From Candidatus Nomurabacteria bacterium (GTDB lineage Bacteria > Patescibacteriota > Minisyncoccia > Phycocordibacterales > UBA9973), in NCBI GenBank assembly GCA_963842815.1, contig CAWJHU010000001.1, positions 12,866-76,865 on the forward strand: DNA of 64,000 nucleotides. The letters run 5' to 3'. Positions 1,174-3,204 of the stretch are shown in pieces; position 1 is the first letter of the stretch, and the number at the start of each line of letters is the position of its first letter. The position numbers and the translations under genes were made by a program. The notes beneath the pieces were generated by a model that ran no database searches, had not been told where the DNA came from, and saw only the letters and a program-made list of their open reading frames with translations.

Positions 1174-3204
1174 CTATTTTAGCATATCTAAGAATTCTTT
1201 CTCGTTTAGAATTTTTACCCCCAATTTTTGCGCATTTGTCAATTTAGAACCCGCTTCCTCCCCTGCCACAACATAGGAAGTACTTTTGGAAACCGAGCCG
1301 GAAACTTTTCCGCCCAGAGAAATAATTTTTTCTTTGGCTATTTCACGGGACATTTGCGAAAGAGTGCCGGTTAAAACAAAAATCATTCCGTTGAATTTCC
1401 CTGTTTTTATTTTTTCCACTTTTTCTATAATTACGCCATTCTTTAGCAATTTTTCTATGAAAAACATGTTTCTTTTATCCTGAAAATAGTCAAAAACGCT
1501 TTTGGAAACTGCTGGCCCGATATTTTCTATATTATTTATTTCTTCAATTTTCGCCTTGGAAAGCTTGTTCCAGCGTGCCAAAATTCATAGCCAAATCTCG
1601 GCTGTTTCTTCCCCCACATGAAGGATACCCAAGGCCCAAAGAAATTTTGAAAATGGAATTTTTTTCTTATTTTTTATTTCCTGCACGATATTTTCCGCGC
1701 TTTTTTCTCCGAATCGTTCCAGTGGAGCGATATCTTCTTTATTGAGAGTAAAAATATCGGCCGCGTCGGTTATCAAGCCTTCATCTTTGAAACGCCTTAA
1801 AATTTTCGGACCCAGTTCATAAATTTCAAAAGCGGAAACAAAATGCTCCAAGTATCTTTCATCTTTGGCCGGACATTTGGGATTGACGCAGTAATAGGCT
1901 ACGGAAGTTTCCAAACTTCCGGTATTTCTTTTCTCCACCTTTCCTCCGCAGGCCGGACATTTTAAAACCATTTTAAATTTCTTTTCTTTGCCGCTACGCA
2001 TGCGGGTTAAAACTTCCACCACTTTCGGAATGACGTCTCCCGCTTTTTCTATCACCACCGTATCTCCTATTCTTAAATCAAGTCTTTCTATCTGGTCCAC
2101 ATTGTGCAAAGTGGCTTTGGACACAGTAGAGCCGGCAACGGAAGTCGGTTCAAAAATGGCCAGCGGAGTAAGCACTCCGGTCCGCCCAACATTTATTTTT
2201 ATATCTTTCACCACCGTCGTCGCCTTCTCCGCCGGATATTTGAAAGCTGCCATATAACGGGGAGCTTTGCCCACAACTCCTAAAATTTCTTGCAATTTTA
2301 AATCATCAACCGATATCACAACACCGTCTGTACCAAAAGGAAAATCGGGTCGGATTTTTTCAAATTTTCTGATGAAAGTAATAACTTCTTTCATATCTTT
2401 GCAAATTGCACTGTCATCATCCATCTTAAATCCGAGTTTTGCCAGATATTTGTGTTTTTCCGAATGCTTTGTTAAGTTTTGTCCGTCAAAAATTTCAGCT
2501 ATGTCGTATGCCGAAAAATCAAGGTTCCTTTCAGCTGACAATTTTGGGTCCAATTGTCTTAGGCTCCCGGCCGCCGCATTTCTTGAGTTTGCAAAGAGCA
2601 TTTTGCCTTCTTTTTCATTTTTTAAATTTAATTTTTGTAGTGTCTTTCTGCTCATTAATGCCTCACCGCGAACTTCAATATATTCAGGCGCTGCCGGCGA
2701 GGCTAAAACAAGCGGGATGGATTTGATTGTTCGTAAATTTTGAGTAATGTCTTCTCCGATGAATCCATCTCCCCTGGTGGCGCCTTTGGTAAATTTTCCT
2801 TTTTCATAAATAAGCGAGACGGCCAGCCCGTCGAATTTCACTTCACAAAAATAATTAACCTCACCCCTGCCCTCTCCTGAAAGGAGAGGGGGCAAAAGTT
2901 TTATTATTCTTTTTTCCCAATCGTATAATTCCTCCTCGCTGAACACGTCATTGAGCGAGAGCATTCTGGTTTTATGTTTTACTTTCAGAAATTTATCCAG
3001 CGGTTTGCCAGCTACTCTGTTTTCCGGAGCGTTGGGGTCGTTAAATTCAGGATATTTTTCTAAAAGAGCTTTTAGTTCTTTCGTCAGAGAATCATAAACA
3101 TCATCCGTCACATTGGGCAGATTTTTGGTATGGTAAGCATCCCGCAATCTCGCGATTTCGCTTCGCAATTTTTCTATTCTTTTTTGAACTTCTGAATTAT
3201 CCAT
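1174..3204 (-). CDS. ligA: NAD-dependent DNA ligase LigA, interrupted by an in-frame TGA at 1585-1587 and a local frame excursion
   Basis: The 539-aa ORF has the adenylation domain (KxDG: '[10 protein letters not shown]'), an OB fold, a Cys4 zinc finger ('CPACGG...C..P.C') and HhH motifs. The downstream 135-aa ORF is the BRCT domain. The conserved 'FGTLEQAF' helix is readable only in a third frame between 1558 and 1596. Confidence 0.9.
2856..2895. repeat. ~37-nt GC-rich palindromic element (aacctcacccc..ccctctcctgaaaggagaggggg) embedded in-frame in ligA
   Basis: Same element as at 45246-45315 and 46300-46345. Here it is translated as [15 protein letters not shown]. Confidence 0.7.

Follow-up and report, generated by a model that had tools for sequence, protein, structure and literature searches.

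A three-block repeat read in frame within ligA of a Nomurabacteria genome and its association with DUF559 nuclease genes

Introduction

What kind of repeat can be read in frame inside a gene for DNA ligase, and why do further copies of it surround a small gene of the DUF559 family? This question is raised by a stretch of 64,000 nucleotides from a Candidatus Nomurabacteria contig (CAWJHU010000001.1, positions 12,866 to 76,865; hereafter the window), in which a 37-nt hairpin element lies within ligA and recurs around a DUF559 gene. A sequence-only reading of the window had described the element as a mobile palindrome resembling repetitive extragenic palindromic (REP) sequences or transposable elements of the miniature inverted-repeat kind (MITEs). 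The analysis reported here relates the element to the BoxC/PIT/TMECO repeats of E. coli, and suggests that small DUF559 nuclease genes are the missing partner of this triplex-type family. Knowledge of the BoxC/PIT elements of E. coli goes back to the 1990s, and they have been biophysically characterised; we know of no origin, spreading mechanism or partner protein found for them so far, and DUF559, to which E. coli YcjD belongs, is to our knowledge a very widespread protein family without known function.

Results and Discussion

A three-block repeat in the window

In what follows, L-numbers denote comparison loci and P-numbers denote homologues. The element was located at 2856-2892 (TAACCTCACCCCTGCCCTCTCCTGAAAGGAGAGGGGG), where both its sequence and its in-frame reading within the ligA open reading frame (ORF) were confirmed. 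Searched with a tolerance of up to 3 mismatches, its hairpin core gave 8 strand-matches at 5 sites in 64 kb, compared with 0 in 100 dinucleotide shuffles, and the non-palindromic tail AACCTCACCCC, which is present at all five sites, gave 5 matches versus 0.6 expected. The earlier description of an interspersed repeat in both orientations therefore stands, with five copies in the window and none in the shuffles, and the coordinates and translations assigned earlier to the copies outside ligA were correct. The copies, treated below as triplex motifs (TMs), are as follows.

2856..2892, minus strand: TM copy A, with its G-rich strand on the ligA sense strand; in frame, LigA residues ~105-116
45236..45272, minus strand: TM copy B, type B-like, with linker CGGG and tail GGATGAGG; diverged, with one extra base
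45287..45323, plus strand: TM copy C, type A-like, with linker TT and tail GGGGTGAGG
45687..45723, minus strand: TM copy D, diverged, with one hairpin mismatch; its C-rich strand is on the DUF559 sense strand
46310..46346, plus strand: TM copy E, 100% identical to copy C; closes the cassette described below
46356-46366: orphan tail beyond copy E

Written along its G-rich strand, the element is CCCTCTCC - TTTCA - GGAGAGGG - TT/CA - GGGGTGAGG, comprising a pyrimidine block (CCCTCTCC), a loop of 3-5 nt, a purine block (GGAGAGGG), a linker of 2-5 nt and, last, a second G-rich block (GGGGTGAGG; AACCTCACCCC on the opposite strand). This second G-rich block is triplet-compatible with the purine arm (G*G, A*A, T*A) and is predicted to be able to pair by reverse-Hoogsteen bonding onto the hairpin. 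The conserved tail is thus a third block matched to the hairpin, which makes the element more than a palindrome and gives it the BoxC/PIT/TMECO architecture; the earlier description as a palindrome holds for the hairpin but leaves out this third block.

A purpose-written structural detector was used that defines a TM as a pyrimidine block, a complementary purine block and a second G-rich block joined by short loops, and that scores both the three-block architecture and the triplet compatibility. In 64 kb it returned exactly copies A, B, C and E (0-1 triplet mismatches), with 0 in 100 shuffles; copy D was missed owing to its stem mismatch. Copy A, with blocks CCTCTCCT / AGGAGAGG / GGTGAGGT and 0 triplet mismatches, matches copies C and E at 35/37 positions. 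Copy B is the outer partner of copy C in an inverted doublet, which in computed folding forms a 90-nt hairpin (-32.3 kcal/mol, z=-8.2). No Rfam family covers the element (the window matched only tmRNA and tRNAs), and a search of viral contigs with the element gave no match.

Relation to BoxC, PIT and TMECO elements

The BoxC element of E. coli, listed as 56 bp with 32 copies (PMC2267715), was renamed the PIT element and later TMECO, a G/C-rich intrastrand triplex motif (Holder 2015, PMC4666352). According to the same study, TMECOs are 37 nt long with the pattern 5'-CCCTCNCCC N3-6 GGGNGAGGG N3 GGGNGAGGG-3', number 23 in MG1655 and 3610 in 262 proteobacterial genomes, and occur in inverted pairs that always combine a type A copy (TTA linker) with a type B copy (CCG linker). 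They form a triplex in vitro as single-stranded DNA, are without promoter or terminator activity, have been tied to local genome instability, and were described as 'always located intergenically', with transposases or integrases nearby 'never found' (Holder 2015, PMC4666352).

The present element agrees with this family in its length of 37 nt, in the order of its parts (C-block, loop, G-block, short linker, G-block) and in its reverse-Hoogsteen-compatible triplets. The core of copy C, GGAGAGGGTTGGGGTGAGG, is identical at 18/19 positions to E. coli TMECO 9, the shared 19-nt core being GGAGAGGGTT(A/G)GGGTGAGG. Inverted pairs likewise join a TT(A)-linker copy to a C/G-linker copy, as in the doublet of B (CGGG) and C (TT) at 45236-45323 and in the type A + type B doublets of L006, L008, L017 and L020. 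Additionally, copy number is patchy among close relatives and a transposase is absent nearby. Unlike TMECOs, the element has blocks of 8 nt that end in A or T, one base shorter than those of TMECOs, and its host is an AT-rich bacterium of the candidate phyla radiation (CPR) rather than a proteobacterium. Intergenic location also does not hold here: copy A is read in frame within ligA, and CPR loci have the majority of their copies inside genes, likewise in frame, with 41/68 TMs in these loci lying inside long open frames. Judged by its sequence architecture, the element is a variant member of the BoxC/PIT/TMECO intrastrand-triplex family.

DUF559 genes and their flanking copies

Two DUF559 genes are present in the window, and both are bracketed by inverted copies of a repeat.

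45339..45728, plus strand: DUF559 gene 1, 129 aa, Vsr-like PD-(D/E)xK fold (PF04480 E=9.5e-33; PDB 3HRL E=1.3e-17)
45236..46366: whole cassette of copies B and C, DUF559 gene 1, copy D, a 127-aa ORF and copy E, between ndk and a DUF8128/TraG-like gene
50096..50569, minus strand: DUF559 gene 2, 157 aa, of a different subfamily (PF04480 E=1.5e-23)
50509..50555, minus strand: upstream flank of gene 2, with C-rich tail ACCCACCCCGC, spacer and hairpin CCCCTCAAGAGGGG
50071..50108, minus strand: downstream flank of gene 2, ATTCCCCTCTTGAGGGGTGCCCAAAGGGCGGGGTGGAT, inverted partner of 50509-50555; 2 matches vs 0 expected

The tails of the copies around gene 1 point inward. Copy C ends 15 nt 5' of the start codon with its tail toward the gene, and the last ~12 codons (QPHSSPLMKGEGK), just before the stop, are copy D, as had been claimed when the copies were said to flank and even terminate this gene. 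Together, copies C and D constitute an inverted repeat across the gene, with 41-nt arms that are 83% complementary and 359 nt apart. Gene 2 is bracketed by an inverted pair of its own (CACCCCTCAAGAGGGGAAT plus a CCACCCCGCCC tail), from which both its N- and C-terminal codons come; the orthologue of gene 2 in L048 is arranged in this way too, and two solo copies are present in L048 in addition.

Residues D53, E64, D66 and H70 are invariant in the DUF559 alignment and are of catalytic type, consistent with a predicted nuclease. Among the PD-(D/E)xK nucleases, DUF559 has been placed together with Vsr and with I-Bth0305I, a homing endonuclease of a group I intron (PMC3424549); the window proteins match PF04480 and 3HRL and keep the acidic and His positions of this clade, but unlike Vsr and I-Bth0305I they have neither a methyltransferase partner nor an intron context. 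In the literature, stand-alone DUF559 proteins such as YcjD have no known substrate, and searches covering DUF559 with palindromic repeats, in-frame repeats in CPR bacteria, later triplex-motif work and ycjD returned no DUF559-repeat link. The association is also unmentioned in Holder 2015, although Table S2 of that study puts TMECO 9 between fabI and ycjD (PMC4666352). A reading of DUF559 as part of a defence system was rejected, PADLOC having given only weak partial hits to the nuclease domains of DpdF and mREase_II.

In L133, the closest relative (ndk 91% identical), the spacer between the same genes is 143 nt long and contains neither DUF559 nor a TM; the ~1.1-kb cassette is also absent from L134 and L135, and L006 has a doublet-DUF559-doublet arrangement beside ndk. 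Several further observations concern the cassette. The 127-aa ORF between copies D and E (45869-46252) had no hit in Pfam, NCBIfam or PADLOC. To either side of this ORF stands the 12-mer CTAGGTTCGGAG (~45776 and ~46279), which gives the impression that something was inserted into the right-hand doublet. The DUF8128/TraG-like gene, which encodes 919 aa and is intact in L133 and L134, is split here into two ORFs that overlap (46387-47628 and 47495-49153), which adds a second frameshift to the contig. Many contigs with DUF559 or with adjoining ndk homologues are only 0.6-2 kb long, which suggests that metagenome assemblies commonly break at the repeats.

Association between DUF559 and the repeats across genomes

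The layout of the window (a G-strand copy, 15 nt, ATG, DUF559, and a C-strand copy that extends into the stop) is repeated in L004, L006 and L027, and it is also found with strict TMECO copies in Acinetobacter sp. A47. The strict TMECO pattern is matched by the DUF559-flanking copies in L046 (Acinetobacter isolate), L081, L097, L111, L122 and E. coli (L136). The element-encoded tail (...QPHPSPLLKGEGK) forms the C-terminus of 76 among the 120 best DUF559 homologues, and more distant DUF559 subfamilies have other hairpin-encoded C-terminal tails.

A set of 80 diverse metagenomic DUF559 loci (38-64% identity) was compared with other genes from the same loci as controls. Inverted repeats running from flank to flank were found at 29/65 testable DUF559 genes versus 3/82 controls (Fisher p=1.3e-9), and at least one TM lay within ~200 nt of the gene at 50/80 loci (1.70 per kb, vs 0.09 elsewhere). 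The commonest layout, a G-strand copy upstream with a C-strand copy downstream, was seen at 19 loci, compared with 2-3 for each other paired layout; the median upstream gap was 12 nt, and the downstream copy mostly overlapped the 3' end of DUF559. Combined, the second window gene, the metagenomic loci, Acinetobacter and E. coli extend the link with DUF559, first noted around a single gene, to a real and general one: the physical association between DUF559 and the repeats is strong, architecture-specific and found across phyla.

In E. coli K-12, the type DUF559 gene, ycjD, has its stop codon within the loop of a degenerate TM; past ycjD there follow a partial duplicate of its 3' end and then TMECO 9. 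Per E. coli genome, the repeat of TMECO 9 is found at 19 places (median), and ycjD is a single-copy gene. Within a spread sample of E. coli genomes, 16-30 TM-like places were counted in genomes with ycjD versus 2-23 in those without it (medians 21 and 6); because this correlation follows phylogroup, it supports the link weakly. Two further features were seen in L136 (E. coli K-12). The fabI-ycjD spacer (5240-5420) holds the partial ycjD 3'-end duplicate with a second degenerate motif, and upstream of ycjD (5758-5802) there is a perfect 17-nt inverted repeat, TCACCTCATTCTGACAA, containing the CACCTCA tail motif.

The copy within ligA

The gene that hosts copy A is divided as follows.

1585..3204, minus strand: ligA, NAD-dependent DNA ligase (Pfam DNA_ligase_aden E=5e-84, OB, Zn finger, HhH)
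1174-1581: continuation of ligA, out of frame; HhH/BRCT part (BRCT by Pfam)

Read in frame in the minus-strand ORF, copy A adds 12 residues to LigA. In an alignment of 120 LigA homologues, this addition is lineage-variable. The closest homologues (P0003-P0008, 80-85% identity) have no insert and carry a six-residue loop such as SPNTKI, whereas many homologues at 75-79% identity have variants at exactly the place of copy A, for example LLNKERGGGEV, and a few keep just ...GEV. At least 6 extra residues are present at this loop in 51/119 homologues, ~27 of which end in GEV. At the DNA level, filled sites measure 36, 39 or 42 nt, all multiples of three, and empty sites 18 nt; in the filled sites, the complementarity of the hairpin is kept while the peptide varies. 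The ligA copy of L048 has a hairpin variant of its own (CCCCTCTCCTTAT[A/T]AAGGAGAGGGG) that recurs at L048 position 4230, which argues for turnover or conversion within the genome over passive inheritance.

An AlphaFold model of intact LigA gives residues 107-112 a predicted local distance difference test (pLDDT) score <50, one of only two such segments, and places them in a coil that follows helix 90-103 and precedes the KxDG-bearing strand 118-124. According to this model, the ligA copy adds a disordered 12-residue loop directly before the KxDG strand.

The split of ligA in the assembly (window 1560-1625) is an observation in its own right. Compared with P0002, a LigA of 676 aa that is intact and 100% identical to that of the window, there are -1 and +1 indels ~35 nt apart, which produce a short out-of-frame stretch with a stop; the split is either an assembly error or a pseudogene. 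Additionally, at least 5 LigA loops across P0003-P0120 hold other palindrome-encoded peptides (GHPMSKWTSDVQVP, RPDLKNSKRSGLGE, SQSSSSKGPRISGAPNPGQTISHRT, NLKNSGAFALGDKRTGDPRRLNF), and therefore several distinct in-frame repeat families exist in the clade.

Distribution and in-frame habitat

The element is not unique to the window, the circumstance named earlier as one that would speak against a mobile repeat: an exact-pattern scan with one genome per species, in a set that does not contain the present genome, gave 46 loci elsewhere. Many are from Nomurabacteria/Paceibacteria, and others are from Calditrichia, Armatimonadota, Ignavibacteriae, Zixibacteria, Anaerolineales, Caldisericales, Bacteroidetes, Alkanindiges and an Acinetobacter isolate. 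One Calditrichia metagenome-assembled genome (MAG) alone accounts for 9 loci, and the element there is inside a longer repeat. In the Calditrichaceae MAG (L002, L003, L012-L014, L025, L030, L038), the exact element is part of a longer conserved unit with a second hairpin, CCCCTTCTCC, and flanks conserved on both sides, the motif having been taken into a larger repeat outside the CPR.

Identical copies of the element are also read in frame in other CPR genomes, within genes for a UvrA-like ABC ATPase, Pol III delta' (two copies), trigger factor, RecG, Tgt, MetRS, LeuRS and a 967-aa protein that looks like PurL. Four of the six frames of the element are free of stops, and the three frames used in CPR hosts are all among these four. 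The peptide of an A+B doublet, ATSPQPSPERRGS.FPFQGKAGDEV, is found in the UvrA-like and the 967-aa PurL-like proteins of two different MAGs. In contrast, ~37 kb from the closest relatives (L049, L050, L133-L135) contain 0 TMs. This in-frame occupation of essential genes in CPR bacteria appears to be a new aspect of the family.

Proposed mechanism and alternative explanations

As the best explanation, we consider it somewhat probable that the element is a non-autonomous repeat of the BoxC/PIT/TM family with DUF559 as its cognate nuclease. The repeat behaves as a non-autonomous one, and its copy number varies by lineage. DUF559 would recognise the element, either by its sequence or in a folded single-stranded form, and nick beside it; repair or template-switching during replication would afterwards place new copies, as single elements or as type-A/type-B doublets, at other sites, and selection would leave those copies that preserve the frame (multiples of 3 bases) in tolerant surface loops of compact genomes. 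Such a process would parallel that of the REP-associated tyrosine transposases (RAYTs) thought to spread REP/REPIN sequences. Presence and absence among relatives, together with identical copies in unrelated genes, point to mobility, and it is from the genomic data that we infer DUF559 to be the nuclease spreading the repeats, along with its specificity, the copying mechanism and the causal direction. A wider form of this proposal, put forward tentatively, is that stand-alone DUF559 proteins including YcjD are cognate nucleases, and that the gene with its inverted repeats may be a selfish or domesticated cassette of ~0.45 kb whose derivatives (single motifs and A+B doublets) have spread across phyla, in the CPR mainly into in-frame loops of essential proteins.

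Several observations weigh against this proposal. DUF559 is nearby at only 4/46 element loci, and no TM was detected at 30/80 DUF559 loci. The strict 9-nt-block TMECO pattern gave 0 matches in the window because the blocks are only 8 nt long (CCCTCTCC / GGAGAGGG / GGGGTGAGG), and Holder et al. saw no stable triplex in duplex DNA in vivo (PMC4666352). Among 47 aligned copies there was no target-site motif, target duplication or duplicated flank, and none of three comparisons (ndk, the L048 pilus cluster and fabI-sapF) gave a clean junction between empty and filled sites: the L133 spacer at ndk is unrelated and not a precise empty site, three genes differ in the L048 pilus cluster, and an efflux island occupies the fabI-sapF site in strains without ycjD. 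In E. coli, ycjD is confined to phylogroups A, B1 and C, with eefRABCD at the site elsewhere, and O157:H7 genomes without ycjD still have ~15 copies. Lastly, in ligA 36 nt stand in place of 18 nt rather than as a plain addition, and this is therefore a replacement or expansion; the insertion into ligA claimed earlier is borne out as a lineage-variable, in-frame addition, but not as a clean insertion.

The main rival, which we regard as unlikely, holds that DUF559 is a selfish homing-type nuclease gene that landed in pre-existing TM doublets, as some insertion sequences (IS) target REPs, with solo repeats spreading or arising by slippage, template switching or recombination. It would account for gene-less tail-to-tail doublets with 9-11-nt spacers (L042, L029, L005), DUF559 sitting where the spacer would be, and it agrees with the grouping of DUF559 with Vsr and I-Bth0305I, with the apparent replacement of eefRABCD by ycjD at one site at least 2 times, and with the distance of most TMs from any DUF559. 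It leaves unexplained the origin of identical solo and doublet copies in unrelated essential genes, and each DUF559 subfamily has its own variant on both sides, which is a better fit to co-evolving ends. A second rival, an improbable one in our estimate, is that the motifs are non-mobile structural DNA signals selected by the host for replication pausing, recombination or nucleoid organisation, and that DUF559 is a host nuclease that processes them and is flanked by them for autoregulation. The conservation of the family across phyla with a nearly fixed core, the single-copy state of ycjD, and the report by Holder et al. of no transposase near TMECOs and of a link to local instability are consistent with such signals, but nucleotide-identical in-frame copies in LigA, RecG, UvrA-like proteins and aminoacyl-tRNA synthetases that are absent in close orthologues are not, nor are the 0 TMs in ~37 kb of close relatives (L049, L050, L133-L135) or the absence of promoter and terminator activity in earlier work.

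That the element is a classical REP/REPIN moved by a RAYT (a Y1 transposase of the IS200/IS605 type) whose gene lies in another part of the genome is very improbable. As with REP/REPIN sequences and RAYTs (PMC3116915, PMC3337134, PMC3733652), the repeats are short, G/C-rich, palindromic hairpins that form inverted doublets, a gene present in one copy has its own repeat variant, inverted, on both sides, and gene subfamilies in one genome carry different repeat families. Unlike those systems, however, the 37-nt element contains no GTAG/CGTC tag or complement and has a conserved third, non-palindromic block, and the gene consistently flanked is DUF559, a Vsr-like PD-(D/E)xK nuclease rather than an HUH Y1 transposase. 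No Y1_Tnp (RAYT) homologue was found in the window. One related CPR genome (L052) does have a RAYT-like Y1_Tnp gene (850-1625), but the palindrome that flanks it in three copies, CAAGGATAATCCTTG, is not that of the present element, and the arrangement resembles a REP/RAYT-type system of its own among CPR bacteria; the RAYT hypothesis was rejected on these grounds. Even less credence is given to the ligA segment being an ancestral loop conserved at the protein level with a chance resemblance to the repeat, or to the element being an IS-derived MITE with terminal inverted repeats. The same LigA loop is extended in many homologues, as a conserved loop would be, yet 35/37 nucleotides are shared with intergenic copies, the closest LigA homologues lack the insert, and the variants hold hairpin complementarity as the peptide changes, all of which contradict a conserved loop. 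MITEs measure ~50-500 bp, far above 37 nt, and this type is ruled out by the asymmetric three-block structure and by the absence of terminal inverted repeats, target-site duplications and duplicated flanks. Of the earlier REP/MITE-like mobile element, the interspersed and lineage-variable character thus remains, the defining features of REPs and MITEs do not, and mobility is suggested rather than observed. A further likeness is to the Rickettsia palindromic elements (RPEs) and intragenic REPs (PMC10969869, PMC3733652), which are in frame in unrelated housekeeping genes including those for replication and repair; as with RPEs, the host proteins apparently stay functional. RPEs are ~100-150 bp long, carry a CGTC tag, occur only in Rickettsia and have no known partner enzyme (PMC10969869, PMC3733652), whereas the repeat described here differs in sequence, measures 37 nt (~75 nt for a doublet) and is spread across phyla.

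Other features of the window

Inverted repeats of 229 nt (23162-23390 and 31588-31816, 98% complementary) surround an 8.2-kb low-GC segment with genes for ZnuABC, Fur, a LexA-like protein and a type II restriction-modification pair (N6/N4 methyltransferase and TdeIII). A large serine recombinase (31961-33535), itself within 96-nt inverted repeats, adjoins this segment. The low-GC segment at 23-33 kb yielded no transposase, and 23162-33535 may be an invertible or mobile island. At 7161-9230, beside type IV pilus genes, a 640-bp unit is repeated in tandem in 3-4 copies (93-100% identical), each with a 154-aa ORF; these look like recently duplicated pilin-like genes.

Conclusions

This study placed a short repeat read in frame within ligA of a Nomurabacteria genome in the company of the BoxC/PIT/TMECO elements, its known relatives; what appears to be new is the partnership of DUF559 with BoxC-type repeats. 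If the proposed action of DUF559 is true, these genes and repeats would represent a second REP-type system, independent of RAYTs and based on a PD-(D/E)xK nuclease that possibly recognises a non-B DNA structure. The presence of repeats within the coding sequence of replication, repair and translation proteins of CPR bacteria bears on annotation, protein alignments and assembly, and informs how much insertion essential proteins tolerate. If confirmed, the DUF559 partnership would supply DUF559/YcjD with a function and BoxC with an origin, and the DUF559-repeat link in the CPR, at 80 metagenomic loci, in an Acinetobacter isolate and at ycjD/TMECO 9 makes both questions testable in E. coli.

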